Assembly (NCBI GenBank): GCA_964525535.1
Contig: CAZGHT010000004.1
Span: 23,902 to 87,901 of the forward strand
Direction of reading: 5' to 3'
DNA length: 64,000 nucleotides
Source of the DNA: an uncultured Rhodothermaceae bacterium
Lineage (GTDB): Bacteria > Bacteroidota > Rhodothermia > Rhodothermales > JAHQVL01
A program made the translations under genes and the position numbers. This document shows, one piece after another, positions 3,680 to 57,954 of the stretch. The notes below the pieces were generated by a model. The model saw only the letters and a list, made by a program, of their open reading frames with translations, did no database searches and was not told where the DNA came from. How positions within the stretch are numbered: position 1 is the first letter of the stretch; the number at the start of each line of letters is the position of its first letter.

Positions 3680-4819
3680 ATGAGCGAAGGTCGGCAAAAA
3701 CGAATCGTTCTTGTAGGGCCAGCATACCCCTATCGTGGAGGCATCGCCCATTTCCTGGAAGGTACGTACAACGAGCTGGCCAGGCGGGGGCACGCGGTTT
3801 CGGTGGTGTCCTTCACGCGTCAATACCCCTCCATGTTATTCCCGGGAAAGACCCAGAAGGAATTCAGGAGTGAGGCATCGAATATGAACGTCGTAGAGCT
3901 CATCGACTCCATCAATCCGATGACCTGGGTACGAGCAGCCCGGTTCATTCGCCGGGAGGACCCGGATGCTGTGATTTTTAAGTACTGGTTGCCGTTTTTT
4001 GCTCCGTCGCTGGGGCTGATGGCCCGCCTCGTCAAATCGAGAGGGACTCGGATACTGGGAATCGTTCACAACGCGCTTCCTCACGAACAAAGGCCGGGCG
4101 ATCGAGGGCTGAGCCGGTTCTTCCTGAACGCGTGCGAGGGCTTCGTGGTCATGTCGGAACAGGTCGAACGAGACATCGAGGGCCTCGGGTTGAAGAACGA
4201 TATCGTACGAACCGGGCATCCGGTGTACGATCATTTCAGTGCTCCGATAGGGCGCAACGAAGCCCGGCATCGATTGGGCTTCGCGAACGAAGCCCGGATA
4301 TTGCTTTTTTTCGGGTTTATTCGCCCTTACAAAGGTTTGCACGTATTACTCGAAAGTATGGCTGCCGTAAGGGAGCGGCTGCCCGGTGTGCAGTTGATCG
4401 TAGCGGGCGAATGTTACGAAAAGATGGCCAGATACCAGGAGATCATACAGCGCCATCGGCTGGCCGAACACATACAGCTTCACACAGACTACATACCCAA
4501 CGAAGACGTGAACGTGTATTTTGAGGCGGCGGACCTGGTCGTGCAGCCCTATCTTTCGGCCACGCAGAGCGGCGTCGCTCAGATCGCGTTCCACTTTGAG
4601 CGGCCTCTGGTCGTCACCGATGTAGGCGGTTTGGCCGAGACCGTCCCTGACGGCGTCGCCGGCCTGGTCGTCCCACCCGACGATCCGGACGCGATCGCCG
4701 ACGCGATCGTCCGCTTCTTTGAAGAAAACCTGAGCGAGAAGCTCACACGCGGCGTAAGAGCCGAGAAGAGAAAATACAGCTGGGAACGGTTGGCCGAGGC
4801 GGTCGAATCTTTAATGTAA
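3680..4819 (+). CDS. family 1/4 (GT-B) glycosyltransferase
   Basis: 379-aa ORF starting 6 nt after the GT2 stop. The C-terminal half has the typical GT4 region (FEAADLVVQPY...SGVAQIAFHFERPLVVTDVGGLAETV). Confidence 0.85.
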   Translation: MSEGRQKRIVLVGPAYPYRGGIAHFLEGTYNELARRGHAVSVVSFTRQYPSMLFPGKTQKEFRSEASNMNVVELIDSINPMTWVRAARFIRREDPDAVIFKYWLPFFAPSLGLMARLVKSRGTRILGIVHNALPHEQRPGDRGLSRFFLNACEGFVVMSEQVERDIEGLGLKNDIVRTGHPVYDHFSAPIGRNEARHRLGFANEARILLFFGFIRPYKGLHVLLESMAAVRERLPGVQLIVAGECYEKMARYQEIIQRHRLAEHIQLHTDYIPNEDVNVYFEAADLVVQPYLSATQSGVAQIAFHFERPLVVTDVGGLAETVPDGVAGLVVPPDDPDAIADAIVRFFEENLSEKLTRGVRAEKRKYSWERLAEAVESLM

Positions 4820-4842: not shown

Positions 4843-5667
4843 ATGGAATACGATCCGATAAAAGATTTCATAGGCCGGCTTTTCAAAGCCACTCCATGGA
4901 CACACCGGCTTTTCTTTCACATGCTCGATCTCTTTTTCTTGCGTGCCTGGCATGTCAAGAAAGAACTGAGGGCGCTGTTTCGGCAGTTCGATCGCAATAA
5001 AACCGTCCGTGTTTTAGACGCCGGGACCGGTTTTGGACAGTACGCCTATTACATTTGCCGGACGTTTCCCAATGCTCAGGTGCTCGCAGTGGATGTGAAG
5101 AGCGATTACCTCGACACTGCACGCACGTTTTTTGCCAGGACGGGGTTGGAGGGGTGCGCCACATTTGCCTATGAAGATCTCACCGAATTGAAGACAGCCG
5201 GCCCTTTCGACCTGATCTTGTCGGTGGACGTCATGGAGCACATCGAAGAAGATCGAAAAGTGTTCGACAACTTTTTCGAGGTATTACACGAGGGCGGGTA
5301 CGTGTTGATCAATACGCCTTCGGACCTGGGGGGCTCTGACGTCCACGATGCATCAGAAGAAGGGTTTATCGGCGAACACGTGCGCGACGGCTACAATATG
5401 GAAGAATTGAAGGGTAAACTGGCTGCCAGCGGGCTTTCCACGGTCCAGGCCAGATACACCTATGGCAAATACGGATCGCTGGCGTGGCGCTTCCTCATCA
5501 AGTATCCGATATCCCTGCTTTCTTTTAACAAAATCTTTGTCATCCTGTTGCCCCTGTATTATATCCCCGTGGTGCCGATCGGAATGCTCCTCAATGCGCT
5601 CGACGTTCGCTCCAGGAACGCTCGGGGCACCGGCCTCATCGTGGTAGCCTCGAAGGACAGGGCATGA
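4843..5667 (+). CDS. class I SAM-dependent methyltransferase with C-terminal membrane segment
   Basis: Motif I VLDAGTGFGQYA and post-I/II motifs (VLAVDV, LILSVDVMEHI). Hydrophobic tail (ILLPLYYIPVVPIGMLL). Start is ambiguous (GTG 4828 or ATG 4843). Confidence 0.75.
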   Translation: MEYDPIKDFIGRLFKATPWTHRLFFHMLDLFFLRAWHVKKELRALFRQFDRNKTVRVLDAGTGFGQYAYYICRTFPNAQVLAVDVKSDYLDTARTFFARTGLEGCATFAYEDLTELKTAGPFDLILSVDVMEHIEEDRKVFDNFFEVLHEGGYVLINTPSDLGGSDVHDASEEGFIGEHVRDGYNMEELKGKLAASGLSTVQARYTYGKYGSLAWRFLIKYPISLLSFNKIFVILLPLYYIPVVPIGMLLNALDVRSRNARGTGLIVVASKDRA

Positions 5668-8488: not shown

Positions 8489-10978
8489 TCAGTCTCGAGG
8501 ATTCAGGATATCATCGATTCGGGCGGCAACGTCGAGCAGGTGAAGGCGAGTCATAGTATCGGACACGCCGCGGTTGAGGGCCGTATCGATGGACTGGTTC
8601 AACGTATCCAGCTCCCCTCGTACGTAGGCCCGGATGTCAGACTGACTGACGTCGACATCGACGTATCCAAAATCCGCGAAGAAGGACGGCGGATCGGGCG
8701 CTTCCTCGGTCATGAGGAACTCCAGGCGTTCGAGGTAGCCTCGCTGCAGGTTTCTACGGAACGGGTCGATCGAGGTCCTGTCGGCCAGTTCGGTCCATAT
8801 GCCGGCTCTCAGGTCGGCAAACAGCTCGTGACAGGTATAGGTATCGTCGACCATGATTTCAGCTTCCATCATGCGGGCGAGACGTTGAGGGTCGAGAATG
8901 AGGTCGACAGCGCCGACCTGGTAGTTTCTGAGACGATCCATGGCACCCGCTCCTTCGATCCGGCGCAGTACGGCCGTGTCGAGTAGCCAGTCAGGGGTCT
9001 GGAAGACGTGTTCGCTGAGCCATTGCATGGATTCTCGCTGTCGGGCTTCGGGCACCATCTCATAGACGAGGCCATCCTGGTCGGCCGTTTTGAACGTCTC
9101 GTACCACCCGCCGACATTGCGCCCCACGTGCCCGATGTATCGATTCCACTGGGTGGTGAGCTGGCCGTACAACTCCTCGAGGTCATCGTAGTTTTCGGCG
9201 TCCTCCGTGCTCCATTCGACCAGGTTATCGAGAATAATCTTCAAGTTCTCGATGCCGTAAGTGCTTGCGCGTGCAGCATCGTTGCCGAGGTCTTCATTCT
9301 GAGAACGGGGATCGAACCGGGGCCCCTGGCGCCCATAGAAGTACAGGGGATTGCCGGCTCGTTCGACGACCCACTGGTTGAGGATCTCGCGTTCTTCGGC
9401 GGGGGAGGCGGCTTCGGGTATCGGCGAATACCCCCACTGAGTAACCCATTTGTCGTAGATGCCGATGTCCGGCATCAGGTTCGTGACACCGTCGCCGGGC
9501 TGGGCGACATAGTTGAAGCGGGCATAGTCCATGATAGAGGGGGCCGTCCCCATCTGGTCGGTGAAGGTCGGGGAACGCAGCGAATCAACCGGGTATGCAA
9601 AGCTGGATCCCCAGTTGTGCGGGTAGCCGAGAGTATGGCCTACCTCATGGGCCGAGACAAATCGGATGAGCCGGCCCATAACCTCCTCTTTGAAGGTCGT
9701 CTCTCTGGCGTCTGGATTGATGGCGGCGGTCTGGATGAAGAACCAGTTACGCAGCAAGTTCATCACGTTGTGATACCAGCCGATGTCGCTTTCGAGTATT
9801 TCACCCGTTCGGGGGTCGTGGACGTGGGGGCCGAACGCGTTTTGGATAGGCGAGGCAAAATAACGGATGACGGAATAACGAACGTCTTCAGGGCTGAACT
9901 CGGGGTCTTCTTCCGGGGATGGCGGATCTTTGGCCAGAATCGCATTTTTGAATCCGGCTTCTTCGAAGGCGCGATTCCAATCCTCGACGCCCTGTTTGAT
10001 GTAGGGGCGCCACTGTTCGGGCGTGGCAGGGTCGATATAGTACACAATCGGCTTCACCGGTTCGACGAGTTCGCCACGCGCCATCGCTTCGGGATCATTG
10101 GGTTCGAGGCGCCACCTCGTGATAAAACACTGCTCTTCAGCTTTCTGGGCGTCCCGGCCATAATCCGTCAGGCGCACGCTGAAGAAGCCGACCCGCTCGT
10201 CGCACAGCCTGGGCCGCATAGGATCTTCAGGTAACAGAATCATGGACTGATTCATCTCCAGCGAAATAGTGCCCGTCGAGCCATTCGAAGGCGGTTCGGT
10301 GGCCTCGTAGGTGAGGACGTGTTTGACTTCGATATTCCGTGGGTAACTTTTTGCCGAGGAAATGTACGTCCTGGACGGGTCCAATCGTCGAACTTTGTAC
10401 TGCTCTCTTCTCGATTTCTGTAGACCCAGAGAAGGTATGTCCTCCAGGTATAGATCAGACACGTCGATCACCACACCTGATGAATCCTCATTAAGCGCCT
10501 CGATCTCGAACGATTTGATGATAGGTTCGAAGTTAGAATTGCGGACGGCCTGGTAGATAGGCAAGCCCTCGTCCGCGATGTTTTCGTAGCTTACTCGACG
10601 AAGCAGTAACTTGTCATCGAGCCGCTGCCAGCGAACGACCTGTGTGTTCGCTTTCATACCGCCGTACCCGATATTGTGAGCCGTGCTCGCGATGCGGGTC
10701 ACCAGGAGCATTTCCATCTCCAGCATATCGTTGGGGACTTCGTACAACAGTTTCTGGTTTTGCTGGTGTAGATAAAAAAGTCCTTCGTCGGATTGCATGC
10801 CGGAAGTAACGACTTCGTCGTACGGTTTGATTTCTTCCGTATCGTCGTCTCCGCTCTGTCCTGTGTTCGATGAGGGATCGCCAGCGTTGTTGGTGGTTCC
10901 GGGCTGGGTTGCCTTGCAGCCCAGGAGAAATACCAGGCAGATCAAAAGGCTATTCGCGAGGTAGGTGTACATACGCAT
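8489..10978 (-). CDS. secreted/lipoprotein zinc-dependent metalloprotease (DUF5117/DUF4953 type)
   Basis: 829 aa. Signal peptide with lipobox-like LLGC. Zinc site HEVGHTLGYPHNW. Overall layout matches the large 'zinc-dependent metalloprotease' family common in Bacteroidota. Confidence 0.9.
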   Translation of the reverse strand: MRMYTYLANSLLICLVFLLGCKATQPGTTNNAGDPSSNTGQSGDDDTEEIKPYDEVVTSGMQSDEGLFYLHQQNQKLLYEVPNDMLEMEMLLVTRIASTAHNIGYGGMKANTQVVRWQRLDDKLLLRRVSYENIADEGLPIYQAVRNSNFEPIIKSFEIEALNEDSSGVVIDVSDLYLEDIPSLGLQKSRREQYKVRRLDPSRTYISSAKSYPRNIEVKHVLTYEATEPPSNGSTGTISLEMNQSMILLPEDPMRPRLCDERVGFFSVRLTDYGRDAQKAEEQCFITRWRLEPNDPEAMARGELVEPVKPIVYYIDPATPEQWRPYIKQGVEDWNRAFEEAGFKNAILAKDPPSPEEDPEFSPEDVRYSVIRYFASPIQNAFGPHVHDPRTGEILESDIGWYHNVMNLLRNWFFIQTAAINPDARETTFKEEVMGRLIRFVSAHEVGHTLGYPHNWGSSFAYPVDSLRSPTFTDQMGTAPSIMDYARFNYVAQPGDGVTNLMPDIGIYDKWVTQWGYSPIPEAASPAEEREILNQWVVERAGNPLYFYGRQGPRFDPRSQNEDLGNDAARASTYGIENLKIILDNLVEWSTEDAENYDDLEELYGQLTTQWNRYIGHVGRNVGGWYETFKTADQDGLVYEMVPEARQRESMQWLSEHVFQTPDWLLDTAVLRRIEGAGAMDRLRNYQVGAVDLILDPQRLARMMEAEIMVDDTYTCHELFADLRAGIWTELADRTSIDPFRRNLQRGYLERLEFLMTEEAPDPPSFFADFGYVDVDVSQSDIRAYVRGELDTLNQSIDTALNRGVSDTMTRLHLLDVAARIDDILNPRD

Positions 10979-18507: not shown

Positions 18508-19956
18508 ATGCACTGCCATCAATTTGAAGCGAAATATTCTCGGCGCGACTTTTTGTCAAGAACGAGCCTTGGATTAGGGGCCACGGCGCTGGCTTCCTTA
18601 ATGAATCCAGGGACACTGTGGGCGGCCGGGTCCGATGACGAAAAAGGTGTGCTCGGTGCTCCTCATTTTACGCCGAAGGTGAAGCGCGTCGTGTATCTCT
18701 TTCAGAGCGGTGGCCCTTCGCAACTGGAGTTATACGACTTTAAGCCTCTTCTGAGGGAACGAAATGGGGAAGAACTCCCTGCGTCGGTGCGCGGGGATCA
18801 GCGATTGACAGGGATGACGGCCCATCAGAAAACCTTTCCGATGGCCGGATCTCAGTTCGATTTCTCGAAATACGGAGAAAGCGGCGCCTGGTTGAGCGAT
18901 CGTGTGCCACACATCGCTTCGATCGCAGATGAGTTGTGTTTCATCAAATCGATGTATACAGAGGCGATCAACCACGACCCTGCAATTACCTTCTTCCAGA
19001 CGGGATCCCAGCAGCCAGGCCGGCCGAGTATCGGCTCATGGATCAGTTACGGGCTGGGTTCCGATAACGACAACCTGCCGGCATTTACCGTGTTGCTGTC
19101 CCGCAGCACCGATGGCGGTCAGCCGTTGTATGCAAGGTTGTGGGGGAACGGATTTCTCCCTTCTGAACATCAGGGGGTTCAATTTCGATCGGGCAAAGAT
19201 CCCGTGCTCTATCTGAACAACCCGCCGGGCATAAAGGCATCGAATCGGAGGCGCATGTTGGACTACTTGCAGGCCATGCAGAAAGAGCAAGAGGAGCGGA
19301 TCATGGATCCGGAGATAAGCTCTCGGATCGCTCAGTACGAGATGGCGTACAGGATGCAAACGTCTGTGCCAGAGACGATGAACATCAACGACGAGCCCGA
19401 GCACATATTCGATCTTTACGGTGCACAGGCCCGGATTCCCGGCACGTTCGCGGCCAATTGTTTGCTGGCTCGCAGGCTCATAGAGCGTGATGTGAAATTT
19501 GTACAACTGTATCACCAGGGGTGGGATCAGCACGGAAACTTGCCCAGGGATATAACAAAGCTGACGCGCGATGTGGACCAGCCTTCGGCCGCTCTCGTCA
19601 TCGATCTGAAGCAAAGGGGCCTGCTGGAGGATACACTCGTCATCTGGGGGGGAGAGTTCGGCCGGACCAACTATTCTCAGGGCAAGCTTACCAAAGACAA
19701 CTACGGTCGGGATCATCATCCCCGTTGTTTTACGATCTGGATGGCCGGCGCCGGAGTAAAAGCCGGGTTCACCTACGGCGAAACTGACGAATTCGGATAC
19801 AACATTTCAGAGAATCCGGTCCACGTCCATGACTTTCAGGCGACGCTGATGCATCTCATGGGCATCGATCACGAGCGATTGACCTTCAAACACGAAGGGC
19901 GCAGGTACCGACTGACCGATGTGCATGGCCATCTGGTGCCTGCCATTTTGGGTTGA
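18508..19956 (+). CDS. DUF1501 (sulfatase-fold) protein with Tat signal
   Basis: ATG at 18508 gives SRRDFLSRTSLGLGATALA (twin-arginine signal). The rest matches the DUF1501 layout (LFQSGGPSQLELYD ... GGEFGRT ... GRDHH). It is the typical partner of DUF1549/DUF1553 genes. Confidence 0.9.
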   Translation: MHCHQFEAKYSRRDFLSRTSLGLGATALASLMNPGTLWAAGSDDEKGVLGAPHFTPKVKRVVYLFQSGGPSQLELYDFKPLLRERNGEELPASVRGDQRLTGMTAHQKTFPMAGSQFDFSKYGESGAWLSDRVPHIASIADELCFIKSMYTEAINHDPAITFFQTGSQQPGRPSIGSWISYGLGSDNDNLPAFTVLLSRSTDGGQPLYARLWGNGFLPSEHQGVQFRSGKDPVLYLNNPPGIKASNRRRMLDYLQAMQKEQEERIMDPEISSRIAQYEMAYRMQTSVPETMNINDEPEHIFDLYGAQARIPGTFAANCLLARRLIERDVKFVQLYHQGWDQHGNLPRDITKLTRDVDQPSAALVIDLKQRGLLEDTLVIWGGEFGRTNYSQGKLTKDNYGRDHHPRCFTIWMAGAGVKAGFTYGETDEFGYNISENPVHVHDFQATLMHLMGIDHERLTFKHEGRRYRLTDVHGHLVPAILG

Positions 19957-30712: not shown

Positions 30713-32143
30713 TCATTCAACCAGTGTGCCAGCCTGGGATTCTTGGACCAGGATGCCGCACGTGTCGAGCAGTCTGAGTATAGAGACGTTAAATGTTCTC
30801 ACTGCTTCATAATAGGCAGCTTCGAGTTGAAGGCTGACCTGGACCGCACGCACCAGGTTTTCGGTATCCCCGAGGTCGAAGTCGAAATTATTCATCTCTG
30901 TCATCAGCCAGTTTCTACTTATACGCAAGGATTCGTCCTGAGCTTCAAGGGCTTTATTTTGGATGATGAAATTCCGGTAGGCTTCTTCGACTTCGAAGAG
31001 GATGAGCAGGTGAGCGGCTTCTTGCTGGTACCCGACCTGATTCAACTCTGCACGAGCCTGATCGACGCGAGCTCTGGTCTGCAAAAAGTTGAGATTCTGG
31101 CGGATACCGAGTCCGGCGGTAAACGAACGACCTCGAAAAGGGTCTCCCACGTAGGGGGACGGTTGCCGGAATCGTCCCTCTGCGTAAGAAAGCCGACCGG
31201 TAAAGCCTACGAACAGCTTCGGGAAAAAGTTGGATTTTGCGACGTCGAGCAAAGCGGATCGAGCGATGCGGCCGGCTCGTGCCTGGGCAAGTTCAGGCCG
31301 GTTGGCGAGGGCAATCTGGATGTACGTGTCGAGCGAGTCGAGCGTAAACGCGATAGGTTCGAGAATACTACGTTCGGGAACCACGATAGATTCTTCAGGC
31401 AGATTGAGTTGTCGCTTCAACGCAGACCGGGCCACTTCGCGTTGCTGGTCGACCTCCACGACGCGTCGGAAGAATTCCTGCTCCGAAATTTGAACCTGGA
31501 AGAGGTCGGCATCGTCCACATCCTCATCCCCTTCCAGAAGAAGGCGGTTGATTTCATCTTTCGCCTGGTTCAGTACATCCCCGATGCGGTCGGTCAGCCG
31601 GTAGAGTTCTTCCGTGAGCAACAGGTTTATGAACAGTTCGCCGGTTCGGAGAGCGATTTCCGACTCTTTGTCTCGAACGGAGGCCTCCTCTACATCTATG
31701 CCCGAGCGGGCCGCTTTGATATTGTTGGATAGCTCTCCCCAGGTATAAATCGGTTGGATGGCCTCCGCTTCGAGCAGTGTGAAGAGGCCCAGGTTGTCCC
31801 AGTCATTAGCTACATCCGGGTCCAGGTACAACGCATCAGTGGACGTTCCTTCTTCGACGCCCTTGAGACCCGGGGCCAACGAATGGCCCGTTGTGAGCTG
31901 CAGATCGGGCAAGAACTGGCTGGAGCGGGCAAAGTTATACCGGGCAGCAGCGAAAGCTTTGCTGGATTCTACGTCCTGAACTTCCGGGCTCCCGTCTAAA
32001 GCGCTCCGAATTGCCGAAGTCAGGTCGACGTATATCGTATCCGAAGCGGGCCCTTGTTGCGCGAGAAGAAGAACGGGATGGAAAAGACTGAAGAAGGCGA
32101 GAAGTGCTGTCAGCGAAATAAGCGAGGGTACGTAAGCGTTCAT
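30713..32143 (-). CDS. TolC-family outer-membrane efflux protein
   Basis: ATG at 32143 gives a signal peptide. Two-repeat coiled-coil/beta-barrel pattern with conserved A..Y...A, LP.L....Y and L....A...A segments typical of OEP/TolC. Confidence 0.85.
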   Translation of the reverse strand: MNAYVPSLISLTALLAFFSLFHPVLLLAQQGPASDTIYVDLTSAIRSALDGSPEVQDVESSKAFAAARYNFARSSQFLPDLQLTTGHSLAPGLKGVEEGTSTDALYLDPDVANDWDNLGLFTLLEAEAIQPIYTWGELSNNIKAARSGIDVEEASVRDKESEIALRTGELFINLLLTEELYRLTDRIGDVLNQAKDEINRLLLEGDEDVDDADLFQVQISEQEFFRRVVEVDQQREVARSALKRQLNLPEESIVVPERSILEPIAFTLDSLDTYIQIALANRPELAQARAGRIARSALLDVAKSNFFPKLFVGFTGRLSYAEGRFRQPSPYVGDPFRGRSFTAGLGIRQNLNFLQTRARVDQARAELNQVGYQQEAAHLLILFEVEEAYRNFIIQNKALEAQDESLRISRNWLMTEMNNFDFDLGDTENLVRAVQVSLQLEAAYYEAVRTFNVSILRLLDTCGILVQESQAGTLVE

Positions 32144-54711: not shown

Positions 54712-55614
54712 ATGATTGATATCTGTCTGAAAGAAGGCGCGAGATCCATTCGGAAAAGACCAGGGCTGATTTTCCTTTTGTACGGGGTCAATCTGATGGC
54801 CGCGGTTATAGTCGTACTTCCTCTCTACGGTGTTTTAGTCGAACACATCGGCCTGACCGGGCAGGGATCAGCGTTGATCGAGTCTTTCGATCTCGTTCTA
54901 TGGCGAGAAGTGTTTATGGAGATCGGGCCAGAATTACGTGTCGTAGGGCTTCCTTTTGCGGTCGTAGCACCCCTCTACGTGGTCTGGAAGGCGGCGGCAC
55001 ACGTAGGAGTGATCTATGCGTTACATAATGGCAGGATCTGGCCTTTCTGGCGAGGCGTAGGCTACTACACCGGTCCGTCGTTGCTGGTGAGCCTGGCATA
55101 CCTGCCTCTCAAGTTGATCTGGGTGGCCGGGGTCCTCCTCGTATCCGGGATCCTGGCCAACGTGTGGCGGGGGGCCGTGGGGGGGTTCTGGATATTTGGC
55201 GTTTTCATCCCCTTCTCGGTACTGTGCGGATGGGCGATCCTCGACCTGTTCCAGAGATACAGCAAACTCGCACTGGTAGTCAAGCACGATACCGTATGGA
55301 GATCGTTGAAGACCGGTATGGTTTGGCCGTTCAAATACGGAACTGCAAGCTACCTCTACGTATGCTGGTACGCCATTATACTGGTTATTCTCTTTTTTTC
55401 AGCTTTGCTCCATGGACAACTCCACGTAGGCGTCCAGGCAATCTCTATTGCATTCCTGATACAACAGGTCAGTTTGTTTACGCGGTCGGCAGCATCGGTG
55501 GGGTGGATAGGCAGTGAAGTGTATTTCTTTGAGAGAACCCTGGAGAAAGAATGGCCTCTCATCGCGGATACCGACCAGCAAGAGGAGGGCCGGAGGCAGA
55601 AATCCCTCGCGTAA
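54712..55614 (+). CDS. hypothetical polytopic membrane protein
   Basis: 300-aa ORF with about 6 hydrophobic helices. No family recognised. Its stop codon TAA (55612..55614) is the start of a 10-A run. Confidence 0.6.
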   Translation: MIDICLKEGARSIRKRPGLIFLLYGVNLMAAVIVVLPLYGVLVEHIGLTGQGSALIESFDLVLWREVFMEIGPELRVVGLPFAVVAPLYVVWKAAAHVGVIYALHNGRIWPFWRGVGYYTGPSLLVSLAYLPLKLIWVAGVLLVSGILANVWRGAVGGFWIFGVFIPFSVLCGWAILDLFQRYSKLALVVKHDTVWRSLKTGMVWPFKYGTASYLYVCWYAIILVILFFSALLHGQLHVGVQAISIAFLIQQVSLFTRSAASVGWIGSEVYFFERTLEKEWPLIADTDQQEEGRRQKSLA

Positions 55615-55642
55615 AAAAAAAAGCCGGACATTACGGTGTCCG
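55613..55642 (-). terminator. Rho-independent terminator (minus strand)
   Basis: The minus strand reads GTCGGACA-CCGTAA-TGTCCGGC followed by T10 (complement of A-run 55613..55622). Confidence 0.6.
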
Positions 55643-55700
55643 ACTGGATAGAAACCAGACCTTACGGTGTCTGGCAAGAACTGAACATTACGGTGTTCAG
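55625..55700. repeat. three tandem hairpins with identical loops (TTACGG) and covarying stems
   Basis: CGGACA-TTACGG-TGTCCG (55625..55642), CCAGAC-CTTACGGT-GTCTGG (55655..55674), CTGAACA-TTACGG-TGTTCAG (55681..55700). Conserved core AC(A/C)TTACGGTGT. The outer stems differ but remain complementary. Confidence 0.7.
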
Positions 55701-55754
55701 CGGTAGTGACCTCGTTTGCCTGAGTAGACAAAGGGCGAGGGTTCGCGAATGGGT

Positions 55755-56027
55755 TCAAGCTGATCGCATCATGCTCATTAATTCTTGAACTTCTTCTTTC
55801 TTTGGTATCTTGGTCGATTCAGGACCCAATTCGCGAAACGCATCCATGAAAAAAAGCGCTAGAGCTTCCCGTTCTTCCACATTCGTTGCATACGTATCAA
55901 ATACGGTCATTAGCTGCGTCCACAATGTGTCAGCAATTTTCCCAGTAAGATACAGGGTGAACAAAACACGGAAGGCCGACTTGCTAGAAGGCGAGTGAAC
56001 TCCATTAGTGCGCATTCTTGACCTCAT
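55755..56027 (-). CDS. hypothetical small protein
   Basis: 90-aa ORF (possible shorter start at the internal Met, MTVFDTY...). The C-terminal half looks protein-like (NVEEREALALFFMDAFRELGPES...). No homolog recognised. Confidence 0.35.
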   Translation of the reverse strand: MRSRMRTNGVHSPSSKSAFRVLFTLYLTGKIADTLWTQLMTVFDTYATNVEEREALALFFMDAFRELGPESTKIPKKEEVQELMSMMRSA

Positions 56028-56122
56028 AAAACAATGAAATAATTAAGCAATATTTTCTTCTCTCAATAACAATTATCGGGCCAGAACGAGATCTTTAAAT
56101 AAGAAAAGCTCAAATAAGTCAT

Positions 56123-56222
56123 GGATGTTACACAGGTTGTGCACAGCAATACTATAAAACAGGCGTTGACCGAAGCGAAATGCCTTCGCGGCAGCTCTTT
56201 TGCGCACAGATGCGTAACATCC
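56123..56222. repeat. 100-bp copy (subfamily 2) of the GATGTTACGC-terminated element
   Basis: GGATGTTACACAGGTTGTGCACAGC...TGCGCACAGATGCGTAACATCC. Both arms match the arms of the 27574..27704 copy in inverted order. Different central module (CGAAG-N8-CTTCG). Confidence 0.8.
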
Positions 56223-56232
56223 ATTAGTAAAT

Positions 56233-56330
56233 GATGTTACGCGAACTGTGCACAGCAGCCTGGTTGACGCGGCTTTGCAACCGTGCAAAGCCGCTCGGGT
56301 AGCACGTATGCGCATCCGGCGCGTAACATC
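56233..56330. repeat. 98-bp copy (subfamily 1) of the GATGTTACGC-terminated element
   Basis: GATGTTACGCGAACTGTGCACAGCAGCC...GCGGCTTTGCAACCGTGCAAAGCCGC...GTATGCGCATCCGGCGCGTAACATC. 94/98 identical to the reverse complement of 62178..62275. 11-bp perfect TIRs and an 11-bp central stem. Confidence 0.9.
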
Positions 56331-56454
56331 TGTATTAATGGGGGACTGTGGCCGGCGGCCGATCGTGGAGTTGTCTCATAAGCAATTACGAAAATACCTC
56401 TTTGAGTATCATGCTGTATGAGTTTGCCGAGGGACTGGCCATCATGCCGCCTTT

Positions 56455-57954
56455 TTACGAAAGGACGATCTCCTTTCTCAAGCGCGCCACAGGAATGCCC
56501 AGTTGCTCCCGGTATTTGGTGACTGTTCGTCGTGCTATTTTGAAGCCCTTGCTTTCGAGCATCTGAGCAATCTTCTGATCCGAAAGGGGCTTCCGTTTTT
56601 CTTCGTTTTCGATGATGTTCTCGATAATCGCTTTGACCTCCTTGTTCGATATCTCCTCGCCGCTGTCAGTAGTCAGGCCTTCGGAGAAGAAATACTTCAG
56701 CTCATATACCCCAAACTCGGTCTGAACGTACTTTCCGTTGACGACCCGGCTCACCGTAGAGATGTCCATATGGATTTTCTCGGCAACGTCCTTCAAGATC
56801 ATGGGTTTGAGGTATCCTTCCCCGAATTTGAAGAACTCTTCCTGTATTTCGACAATGGCTTTCATGACTTTCATCATGGTTTGTCGGCGCTGGTTGATCG
56901 AGTTGATAAACCAGCGGGCGGATTCCAGCTTGCCGCGAAGAAACTGGCGGGTCTCCGAGTCGAACGAGTTATTCTGGTTTTGATTGTTTCTCTTGCGATC
57001 CGCCGAGATCTGATGAAGCATCTGCCTGTACTGCCGGGAGATACGCAGCTGTGGGGTATTGCCGTTATTCAATGAGATATAAAAATCTCCATCCTCGTAT
57101 ATAACGGTAAAATCGGGGGTGATATAGTTCTGGGCAGCCGTAAATTCCCCTTCGCCCGGTTTGGGGTTGAGACGCTGTATGAGGTCGAAGGCTTCTTTTA
57201 ATGCATTGCTGGTTACATCCAGCTTCTTCTTGATCGCTTCGAAGTGTTTCATCGTAAAGGCTTTGTAAGCCTTCTCCAGCATCTGAATGGCGACAGAGAG
57301 CCCAGGCACTTCATCGGGCATGCTATACAACTGGACGAGCAAACATTCGCGCAAATCTCGAGAACCGATGCCGACCGGATCTAATTGCTGGATGCCTTTC
57401 AGGACGCGCTCCACATCTTCGTCGGTCAGCATGATCCCATGATTGAACATGATATCGTCTATGATGGACTCGAGGGGGCGTCTGAGATAGCCGTCTTCGT
57501 CGATGGATCCGATAATTTGGTCGGCGATGAGCTCTTCGGTTTCGTTCAGGGGGAGAAACGATAACTGATCGGAGAGATGTTCTGCCATCGAGACGCGGGC
57601 CGGCATGGGTATTTCGCGATCGTCCTCGTCGTCGCTATGGTCGACCCGGGCTTTGTAGCCATAGAGGTCCTCAGAGGCGTTGATGAATTCTTCCCAGTCG
57701 TATTCGTCGTCCTTTTGATCCGTCTCTTCCTGCGTCTCGTTGGCAGGCTGCTCTTCGATGGGTGTCTCGTCCGAGTCAGCCTCTTTAATTTCTTCCTCTT
57801 CTTCAATTCCTTCCTCTAGCAACGGATTGGATTCAAGCTCTGCTTTGATGCGCTGCTCTAAAGCGAGCGTAGGCAACTGTAGCAGCTTGATGTATTGTAT
57901 CTGCTGAGGCGAAAGTTTTTGTTGAAGCGATTGCTTTTGGTGCAGATTTAGCAT
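56455..57954 (-). CDS. rpoN: RNA polymerase sigma-54 factor
   Basis: Gln/Leu-rich region I (LQQKLSPQQIQYIKLLQL), acidic region II, C-terminal HTH and RpoN box (ARRTVTKYRE). Confidence 0.95.
   Translation of the reverse strand: MLNLHQKQSLQQKLSPQQIQYIKLLQLPTLALEQRIKAELESNPLLEEGIEEEEEIKEADSDETPIEEQPANETQEETDQKDDEYDWEEFINASEDLYGYKARVDHSDDEDDREIPMPARVSMAEHLSDQLSFLPLNETEELIADQIIGSIDEDGYLRRPLESIIDDIMFNHGIMLTDEDVERVLKGIQQLDPVGIGSRDLRECLLVQLYSMPDEVPGLSVAIQMLEKAYKAFTMKHFEAIKKKLDVTSNALKEAFDLIQRLNPKPGEGEFTAAQNYITPDFTVIYEDGDFYISLNNGNTPQLRISRQYRQMLHQISADRKRNNQNQNNSFDSETRQFLRGKLESARWFINSINQRRQTMMKVMKAIVEIQEEFFKFGEGYLKPMILKDVAEKIHMDISTVSRVVNGKYVQTEFGVYELKYFFSEGLTTDSGEEISNKEVKAIIENIIENEEKRKPLSDQKIAQMLESKGFKIARRTVTKYREQLGIPVARLRKEIVLS

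Follow-up and report, generated by a model that had tools for sequence, protein, structure and literature searches.

Several described RNA systems come close to the hairpin array considered here. Intrinsic terminators are among them, including those arranged in tandem, and serial terminators are a known design for tightening termination. The present locus resembles them in its G+C-rich stem-loop of 9 bp with a U-run directly behind it, and in its place at the end of a gene whose sense it shares. RNAs of the CsrB/RsmY/RsmZ type are similar in another respect, since they carry several serial hairpins with the same loop on different stems. Regulatory RNAs derived from 3' UTRs share with the locus a conserved terminator region at the end of an mRNA, the conservation of which exceeds that of the rest of the UTR. 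Finally, the P3/L3 arm of purine riboswitches is alike in its L3 loop type, CCGUAA(A), and in a whole 18-mer. In these riboswitches, the two C residues of L3 form base pairs with two G residues in L2.

The array lies in a 64-kb stretch of DNA from an uncultured Rhodothermaceae bacterium (this whole stretch is referred to as the window). It is the 3' UTR of a small minus-strand gene downstream of rpoN, a placement that the preliminary description of this DNA had already considered, and the small ORF is a real conserved gene with 24 homologues at 65-100% identity. In the reading that we regard as probable, the array forms the 3' end of the small-gene mRNA and is an intrinsic terminator with a loop that doubles as a sequence-specific recognition element, amplified in one lineage. 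Transcription of the array, its 3' ends and termination at this place are predicted.

Three hairpins with identical loops are found between the convergent genes, as had been described, at 55622-55645 (hairpin C), 55653-55676 (hairpin B) and 55679-55702 (hairpin A), and they have the core ACMTTACGGTGT in common. The hairpins start 31 and 26 nt apart, and the range of 26-30 nt given originally needs to be corrected. Hairpin C reads AGCCGGACA-TTACGG-TGTCCGACT on the plus strand and AGUCGGACA-CCGUAA-UGUCCGGCU in the minus-strand RNA, where it is the terminal and also the ancestral copy. It consists of 9 bp (5 G-C) and a hexaloop at 55631-55636, with a predicted folding energy of -12.7 kcal/mol and a covariance-model score of 40.6 bits. 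The duplicated copy B, with its stem-loop at 55655-55674, reads CCAGAC-C-TTACGG-T-GTCTGG on the plus strand and (UG)CCAGAC-A-CCGUAA-G-GUCUGG(UU) in the minus-strand RNA (predicted -10.5 kcal/mol, 34.0 bits). It differs from C in one stem pair (G-C to A-U) and in the loop-closing pair (A-U to A·G). In two stem pairs of the other duplicated copy, A, both partners are replaced (one pair from G-C to A-U, the other from C-G to U-A); this copy has its stem-loop at 55681-55700 and reads CTGAACA-TTACGG-TGTTCAG on the plus strand and (C)GCUGAACA-CCGUAA-UGUUCAGU(U) in the minus-strand RNA (predicted -9.1 kcal/mol, 35.1 bits).

Directly 3' of hairpin C, the minus strand has a T10 tract (55613-55622), which is A10 on the plus strand. 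The TAA stop codon of the convergent 300-aa gene (55612-55614, plus strand) is embedded in this A-run, and a further hairpin, unrelated in sequence to A, B and C, is located at 55710-55740 on the minus strand; both had been recognized in the preliminary description. The core occurs three times in the window, always within the array. Shuffled sequences gave a mean of 0.23 matches, and none of 100 shuffles reached three. An assembly artefact can be dismissed, because the organism has been assembled three times independently and the array is identical each time, only the length of the A-run varying between 8 and 10.

The small gene occupies 55755-56015 on the minus strand and encodes 86 residues, the listed 90-aa ORF beginning four codons earlier. 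In addition to the close homologues, about 100 clusters of distant relatives were found. The protein matched no Pfam or NCBIfam family, and a PDB sequence search gave no assignment. Its AlphaFold model (pLDDT 73), which predicts a four-helix protein, had no PDB fold match by Foldseek. The order of rpoN, the small gene, the hairpin, the convergent membrane-protein gene and an M1 peptidase gene is the same in 12 relatives. The membrane-protein gene (54712-55614, plus strand, 300 aa) is the one that read-through from the small gene would enter, and it lies outside the RNA element.

A sigma-54-type promoter-like site, TGGCCCGATAATTGT, is present at 56069-56083 on the minus strand and starts 68 nt upstream of the ATG of the small gene. 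It has GT at -12, where GC is canonical, and sigma-54-like matches in the window alone (2, with 1.2 expected) are no more frequent than by chance. A match to TGGYHH-N5-TTGH was found 59-90 nt upstream of the small-gene ATG in 14 of 14 loci. Judging from these sequences, the small gene is probably sigma-54-dependent. At the other end of the gene, the stop codon and a post-stop box, GAACCCAUUCGCGAA, lie at 55742-55756 on the minus strand. With the coding segment at 55823-55837 (UUCGCGAAUUGGGUC, the codons of an invariant FRELGP) it makes up an inverted repeat, and the predicted duplex between the two reaches -13.6 to -22.6 kcal/mol in 13 of 13 species, compared with -5 to -10 kcal/mol for shuffled boxes.

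Conservation of the hairpin at the orthologous locus had been posed beforehand as a test. All 12 close relatives have exactly one copy of the hairpin there, and three copies are present in the window organism only. The preliminary description missed that the array is a lineage-specific triplication of a hairpin that is near-invariant in relatives, and that the invariant part is the CCGUAA loop and not the structure alone. In the relatives, the hairpin reads AG(UC/CU)GG(A/G)CA-CCGUAA-UGUCCG(G/A)CU, and a tract of U6-7 follows; the sequence of hairpin C is that of the single hairpin in L005, L010, L029, L064 and L065. Over 66 species pairs, the hairpin with T6 is 93% identical, compared with 44% at the four-fold sites of the adjacent ORF. 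In a control terminator from the same loci, between the AdoHcyase and ferredoxin genes, the outer stem alone is kept, and the loop and the inner stem vary freely. The hairpins further upstream in the 3' UTRs of the relatives have stem sequences that differ yet pair, and loops that are free. The hairpin at 55710-55740 of the window is the positional counterpart of these one or two variable hairpins between stop codon and terminator.

A distant relative, L067, has AGCCGAACC-CCGUAA-GGUUCGGCU followed by a U-tract, in association with an 87-aa protein that is much more diverged. The loop is unchanged, and two stem pairs are altered on both sides. It is this one distant locus that suggests deep conservation of the loop.

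The compensatory stem changes noted in the preliminary description were borne out by the wider comparison. Among the window copies and the orthologues, double-sided changes were found in 4 of 9 pairs, and 95% of the cells were paired. With L067 and the upstream hairpin of L009 added, the corresponding values were 7 of 9 pairs and 93% of the cells. In a control with slid partners, the paired fraction was only 19-43%, which is in line with the selection on hairpin structure that had been proposed. The CCGUAA loop itself was invariant in 9 distinct hairpins. We also note that L009 and L016 have a second hairpin with this hexamer, CCUC-CCGUAA-GGGG, upstream of the terminator. It was not counted as an independent duplication, since the fold that RNAfold favours there has an ordinary C(GUAA)G tetraloop.

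The array is a lineage-specific tandem triplication of a single terminator hairpin. The ancestral state, retained in every relative examined, would have comprised one or two variable hairpins, then the conserved hairpin with the CCGUAA hexaloop, and then the U-tract. In the lineage of the window, the unit of hairpin plus U-tract would have been duplicated twice in tandem, with unit lengths of 26 and 31 nt. Copy C, at the end, would have retained its U-tract, now U10, and is the predicted terminator. In the upstream copies the U-tracts would have decayed (the tails are now UUCUUG in A and UUUCUAU in B), with the 12-nt core ACA-CCGUAA-UGU retained and pairing maintained by compensatory changes in the outer stems.

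Of the 24 core positions in copies A and B together, 1 is changed in comparison with C; of the 24 positions in their outer stems, 12 are (Fisher p = 7e-4). The independent substitutions behind this difference are few (13 across two copies). The outer stems of A and B are altered yet still paired. The triplication can be regarded as a natural experiment, in which the loop, three inner pairs and the pairing as such were kept, and the outer-stem sequence and the U-tract were let go. Changes that look compensatory can arise without selection as well, through intrastrand template switching in quasi-palindromes. Given that the array occurs in one lineage only, a recent duplication of little consequence is possible.

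The terminator scan flagged hairpin C with its T10 on the minus strand, in agreement with the earlier view of a canonical terminator-like site, and it also flagged the orthologous hairpin of L009. Copies A and B, which have no U-rich tract directly after the stem, were not flagged; such a tract follows the stem as U10 in hairpin C and as U6-7 in every relative. The window has 133 nt from the stop codon of the 86-aa gene to the end of the terminal hairpin, which lies downstream in the same sense. The single hairpin of the 12 relatives ends 65-108 nt past the stop codon of the small gene. Together with its U-tract, hairpin C is predicted to be the intrinsic terminator at which transcription of the small gene would end.

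Plain tandem terminators might account for much of this. Slippage or unequal exchange would have duplicated the terminator, the additional copies being neutral leftovers or merely helping termination and protection from 3' exonucleases, and the loop would have been kept for termination or folding, with no partner in trans. Every copy has a remnant of the U-tract (UUCUUG, UUUCUAU, U10), as duplication of the whole unit predicts, the array is confined to one lineage with no second array in the metagenome scan, and strong termination would be useful where the stop codon of the convergent gene is inside the T-run. However, what termination calls for is stem stability and a U-tract, and not a fixed loop. 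The control terminator varies in loop and inner stem in the very same genomes, whereas the CCGUAA loop is invariant over near-saturated divergence, in L067 and in both duplicated copies, despite their half-changed outer stems. On balance, we consider this explanation rather unlikely, even though it is the alternative that survives best. Should the loop not be a recognition element, the finding would be an ordinary terminator duplicated in tandem.

The CCGUAA loop is conserved far beyond the needs of termination alone. Because it is invariant across near-saturated species, on the different stem of L067 and in the duplicated copies, we infer a second role for the hairpin. In our preferred reading, a terminator with a loop for recognition, the hairpin would present CCGUAA to a sequence-specific partner, protein or RNA, which may act on the transcript or be titrated by it; the existence and nature of this partner we likewise infer. 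Three copies would raise the valency, and they may add capacity for termination and as an exonuclease barrier before the convergent gene. If the loop is recognized, the array would be a decoy or sponge, or support cooperative binding. A protein-binding hairpin array, as proposed early on, is possible and belongs to this reading; we know of no binding protein for a CCGUAA array. A more elaborate proposal, which we put forward only tentatively, is that the hairpin is a dedicated recognition element, bound by a protein or docked loop to loop with another RNA, in the manner of the identical L3 loop of purine riboswitches, which links a sigma-54-driven transcript by rpoN to a Rhodothermales regulatory circuit.

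On the RNA side, the anticodon loop of tRNA-Arg(ACG), pairing with CGU of the hairpin loop, is a speculative partner; no tRNAs were found in the window. The complement UUACGG is absent from the transcript of the small gene, and no conserved hairpin with an L2-like loop was found in the 3' UTRs. Among the neighbouring proteins, there was no family assignment suggestive of RNA binding. Literature searches on tandem terminators, CCGUAA and sigma-54 or small RNA in Rhodothermales returned nothing relevant. If the loop is a recognition element, it would define a small RNA motif outside Rfam, consisting of one hairpin with six fixed loop bases and a covarying stem. Its host phylum is poorly studied and known here from metagenome assemblies alone, and the motif would be attached to a conserved small gene that is apparently sigma-54-driven and directly follows the sigma-54 gene.

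The repeats might instead matter as DNA, the 12-bp core ACACCGTAATGT, present three times at distances of 26 and 31 bp, being the site of a DNA-binding protein, for example a sigma-54 enhancer-binding protein or an iteron-like system. The core recurs in direct orientation, its outline (ACA-N6-TGT) is in part palindromic, and the sigma-54-like promoter is about 440 bp away; enhancer-binding proteins can act at a distance. Yet the changes in the outer stems keep the pairing and alter the half-sites, as an RNA helix demands and a dimeric DNA-binding protein would not. The G·U wobbles make the pairing strand-specific, and every relative has a single copy with the T-run directly after it, in the sense of the upstream gene and between two convergent gene ends. 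Such a role at the DNA level is therefore very improbable.

The array RNA is the minus-strand read, as seen from the fold z-scores and the G·U wobbles. On the minus strand the z-score was -4.9, and 0 of 200 shuffles folded as well; on the plus strand it was -1.8. The fraction of paired cells was 95.2% in the minus sense and 82.5% in the plus sense, and all eight G·U cells pair in the minus sense only. These numbers bear directly on the plus-strand UACG tetraloops of the preliminary description. A plus-strand element with such loops, closed by U·G, would be a 3' UTR, stabilizer or terminator of the 300-aa membrane-protein gene. That gene does end at 55614, directly before the array, and the three window copies do fold on the plus strand (-8.9 to -9.9 kcal/mol). 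However, the plus-strand fold is no better than that of shuffles, the eight wobble cells become A·C mismatches, no hairpin is followed by a U-tract on this strand, and the scan flagged no plus-strand terminator at the array. In relatives, moreover, the distance from the stop codon of the membrane gene to the hairpin varies, and the T-run on the opposite strand is constant. We consider a plus-strand element scarcely credible, and the tetraloop interpretation is not supported.

The array units are imperfect palindromes within a size range of 20-40 nt, a feature that is not specific for REP or MITE elements. A dispersed REP/BIME- or MITE-like family that landed three copies here, one of the roles initially suggested, has a negligible probability: short imperfect palindromes between convergent genes are the usual REP setting and a different MITE/REP-like element is found nearby (56114-56340), but the covariance model detected no further copy in the 64-kb window (filters off) or in the 277 kb covered in 12 related genomes, the 18-mer GGACACCGUAAUGUCCGG occurs once per contig and always at the orthologous site in four matching Rhodothermales-type contigs, and the element keeps its place next to a single gene across deep divergence. 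Searches of the window for the core (exact and with 1 mismatch), together with a hexamer and hairpin scan, also gave no further copies, and the covariance-model search that was likewise negative took in the window and 13 loci. In JGI metagenome contigs, 19 stretches had two cores 10-40 nt apart; none was homologous, and they were unrelated satellites and tandem repeats, many with ACACC-GUAA-GGUGU palindromes.

Rfam 15 gave no match at the gathering threshold in the whole window. At E up to 10, the region 55300-56500 yielded generic terminator-like noise only, the best sub-threshold scores being those of SorX (16 bits) and the Betaproteobacteria toxic sRNA (15.7 bits). About 21 Planococcaceae genomes have a purine riboswitch whose P3/L3 arm is identical to the 18-mer; the roughly eight other matches scattered over the genome collection are about chance level. 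Membership in the purine riboswitch family (RF00167) was rejected, since there is no P1, P2 or three-way junction and no match at E up to 10. Compared with RF00167, L016 and L029 of Rhodothermales gave no hit, whereas L020 and L034 of Planococcaceae scored 71-74 bits. Unlike the riboswitch, the hairpin here is at the 3' end of the transcript and not in a leader, and L067 shares the loop alone. By analogy, the resemblance offers a lead towards loop-loop docking, not a family assignment.

In contrast to the Csr/Rsm RNAs, in which the repeated loop is A(N)GGA, the loop here is CCGUAA and no GGA loop is present; three copies occur in one lineage only, and they are in the 3' UTR of a protein-coding gene. 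The difference from 3'-UTR-derived regulatory RNAs is that conservation falls on the loop of the hairpin instead of a single-stranded seed that precedes the terminator. A processing site, an internal promoter and target complementarity, features of such RNAs, were not found at the array. From intrinsic terminators the array departs in two ways. Its loop and stem are near-constant between species with near-saturated synonymous sites, and its duplicated copies lost their U-tracts and kept the loop; termination requires neither feature.

The intergenic region between a 300-aa gene (54712-55614, plus strand) and a convergent small ORF (minus strand, listed as 55755-56027; 55755-56015 for the 86-aa form in public assemblies) reads TAAAAAAAAAA-GCCGGACATTACGGTGTCCGACT-...-CCAGACCTTACGGTGTCTGG-...-CTGAACATTACGGTGTTCAG-...-CCTCGTTTGCCTGAGTAGACAAAGGGCGAGG on the plus strand. 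Three related hairpins, C (55622-55645), B (55653-55676) and A (55679-55702), and a fourth, unrelated one (55710-55740) were present in the window sequence exactly as claimed in the preliminary description. The related hairpins have start-to-start spacings of 31 and 26 nt. The 64-kb window has three matches to their 12-nt core ACMTTACGGTGT, all of them within the array, compared to a mean of 0.23 matches in shuffled sequence, where none of 100 shuffles reached three. The array is not an assembly artefact, because three independent assemblies of the organism, made from different sequencing runs, agree on it in everything but the length of the A-run. This homopolymer run (55613-55622), which follows the terminal hairpin and contains the stop codon of the 300-aa gene, has 10 bases in the window and 10, 9 and 8 bases in the other assemblies (L001, L002 and L003, respectively), a difference due either to variation between strains or to sequencing errors in the homopolymer.

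Folding, base pairing and termination signals all indicated that the functional RNA is the sense strand of the small ORF, i.e. the minus strand. When each strand of a 161-nt region was compared with 200 shuffles, the minus strand folded with -56.4 kcal/mol (z = -4.9), which no shuffle matched, and the plus strand with -50.4 kcal/mol (z = -1.8), which 9 shuffles matched. In an alignment of the three window copies with the orthologous hairpins of relatives, standard pairs made up 95.2% of the cells in the minus sense and 82.5% in the plus sense. On the plus strand, A·C mismatches replace all eight G·U wobble cells, which lie at four stem positions. A terminator scan identified hairpin C, followed by T10 on the minus strand, as the sole terminator-like site in the neighbourhood. 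The compensatory stem changes proposed earlier were confirmed by this alignment, and the preliminary interpretation holds insofar as the array, on the minus strand, is the 3' UTR and probable terminator belonging to the small ORF. The alternative reading as UACG tetraloops on the plus strand does not agree with the fold and the pairing of that strand.

The small ORF itself is a real gene. We found 24 homologues (65-100% identity), almost all of them 86 aa long, whose alignment has 34 invariant columns, and a profile search added about 100 further clusters of distant relatives (80-90 aa). The protein matched no Pfam or NCBIfam family, and its four-helix model (pLDDT 73) matched no PDB fold. The immediate upstream neighbour of the gene is rpoN (56455-57954, minus strand), and the order Rv0495c-like gene, rpoN, small gene, then convergent membrane-protein gene and M1 peptidase is kept in 12 related contigs. 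A sigma-54-type promoter-like site (TGGCAC/TGGCCC-N5-TTGC/A/T) is found 59-90 nt upstream of the small-gene ATG in 14 of 14 loci (window, L004, L005, L007-L010, L016, L029 and L063-L067), suggesting that the gene following rpoN is itself sigma-54-dependent. The argument rests on the conserved position and not on match statistics in the window, where the site is not significant (2 matches versus 1.2 expected). The window copy, TGGCCCGATAATTGT (56069-56083, minus strand), has GT in place of GC at -12. Other sigma-54-like matches on the minus strand, at 19356-19371 (TGGCACAGACGTTTGC) and 30717-30731 (TGGCACACTGGTTGA), are within chance expectation by count.

We also note that the stop codon and a post-stop box (55742-55756, GAACCCAUUCGCGAA) are complementary to the codons of an invariant FRELGP motif (55823-55837, minus strand), 66 nt away. 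The duplex is predicted in all 13 species (-13.6 to -22.6 kcal/mol) and shows some covariation, e.g. a Leu codon UUA (L009, L016) matched by changes in the box. Such a helix could bracket the final 22 codons of the small gene together with its stop codon.

Each of 12 close relatives contains a single copy of the hairpin, with the consensus AG(TC/CT)GG(A/G)CA-CCGTAA-TGTCCG(G/A)CT followed by T6-7, and ending 65-108 nt past the small-gene stop codon. Over 66 species pairs, the 30-nt block of hairpin and T6 was 93% identical, and the four-fold degenerate sites of the adjacent ORF were 44% identical, i.e. near saturation. In a control terminator from the same loci, between convergent AdoHcyase and ferredoxin genes, the outer stem alone was kept (ACGCTGCA...TGCAGCGT), and inner stem and loop differed in every species. 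The distant relative L067, whose 87-aa protein matches the family profile at only E = 2e-19, shares gene order and promoter type with the close relatives. Its hairpin, AGCCGAACC-CCGTAA-GGTTCGGCT followed by a T-run, has an identical loop, and two stem pairs are changed on both sides. In an extended set of window and orthologous hairpins, L067 and an upstream hairpin of L009, both sides had changed in 7 of 9 stem pairs, 92.6% of cells paired, the covariation score was reached by none of 500 shuffles, and the six loop bases were invariant in all 9 distinct hairpins. The comparison thus establishes, at sequence level, a single locus-specific hairpin with invariant CCGUAA loop, covarying stem and U-run at the apparent end of the small gene's mRNA region.

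Between stop codon and conserved hairpin, the relatives have one or two further hairpins with variable but paired stems and free loops. In CCUC-CCGUAA-GGGG (L009 10277-10290, L016 965-978) and GUCCC-CUGUAA-GGGAC (L064 ~10176-10193), the loops match the conserved hexaloop fully or almost fully. These hairpins may stem from earlier duplications of the terminator hairpin and have since decayed; the one in L009 is ambiguous, since an ordinary C(GUAA)G tetraloop is an alternative fold for it. A 14-nt linker preceding the conserved hairpin, UUUA(U/C)AUAAAUUAG, is invariant in six species (L004, L007, L008, L009, L064, L066) and missing from the window organism. The AUAAA within it is predicted to lengthen the stem by pairing with the first bases of the U-run, and the linker may make the terminator bidirectional in these species.

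In the window organism, the hairpin is triplicated, and all three copies have kept the core. Copy C, adjoining the U-run, has the same sequence as the hairpin of several relatives, which marks it as the ancestral copy. Decayed U-tracts persist after copies B (UUUCUAU) and A (UUCUUG), which shows that the whole unit of hairpin and tail was duplicated. Relative to C, copies A and B differ at 1 of 24 positions in the 12-nt core (three inner pairs plus loop) and at 12 of 24 in the 12 outer-stem positions (Fisher p = 7e-4). Two G-C to A-U changes and one C-G to U-A change, each a double substitution, keep the stems paired. Loop, inner stem and pairing were retained, by selection or at least by whatever process formed the copies, and the outer-stem sequence and the U-tract were released. 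The divergent outer stems would keep the three copies from mispairing with each other.

There is good support for hairpin and U-run as the putative intrinsic terminator of the small gene, for copy C as the one that would do the terminating, and for sigma-54 as the probable driver of the gene. With moderate support, and at roughly even odds, the CCGUAA loop may in addition be recognised sequence-specifically by a protein or RNA, so that extra copies would provide more binding sites. The extra copies may also strengthen pausing, termination and the exonuclease barrier before the convergent gene. The main alternative, that the array does nothing beyond termination and is a recent, nearly neutral duplication, we consider rather improbable. 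A DNA-level binding site is most likely out, as the outer-stem changes keep pairing and not a half-site, and the wobble pairs tie the pairing to one strand. A dispersed repeat, such as the REP-like family considered in the preliminary description, is excluded, since both a hairpin covariance model (window with filters off, and 277 kb of related genomes) and the 18-mer GGACACCGTAATGTCCGG (once per contig in four matching contigs of Rhodothermales-type genomes in a genome collection) located copies at the orthologous site only. No second array turned up when metagenome contigs were scanned for pairs of cores 10-40 nt apart, all matches being unrelated satellites. We regard the element as a probable terminator hairpin whose hexaloop is fixed, which matches no Rfam family and was amplified in one lineage.

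Repeats of another kind occur nearby. Two tandem ~109-nt units with inverted ends (GATGTTACGC...GCGTAACATC) lie between rpoN and the small-gene promoter (56114-56340) and are missing from the equivalent place in relatives. They look like a MITE/REP-like mobile palindromic element, and are probably the "first" repeat family implied by the preliminary description. The related locus L065 has two elements of this kind just past the conserved terminator (~10260-10480). Between M36-type peptidase and ferredoxin genes, tandem and inverted repeats make up a 400-nt block in the related locus L010 (5067-5480), and L065 has a long near-perfect palindrome (GTCTCAATATTGAATGCCCAATATCCAATG..., 5168-5264).

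The 18-mer also forms a terminator-like hairpin (CCCCGGACACCGTAATGTCCGGGGATTTTTT) in Candidatus Alloscillospira gallinarum, an unrelated Firmicutes MAG (L037 ~3989-4006), a match that may be due to chance, as an 18-mer should have ~17 chance matches in the genome collection. In about 21 Planococcaceae genomes (loci among L011-L043, e.g. L020 2573-2672 and L034 927-1026), the P3/L3 arm of the purine riboswitch consists of this very 18-mer, and two of these loci score 71-74 bits with Rfam RF00167. The Rhodothermales loci are not riboswitches, because P1, P2, the junction and the Rfam match are all missing. L067 shares only the loop with the P3/L3 arm. In the purine riboswitch, two C of the L3 loop pair with two G of loop L2. 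This makes the resemblance a lead, and nothing more than a lead, that another loop can dock onto a CCGUAA loop.
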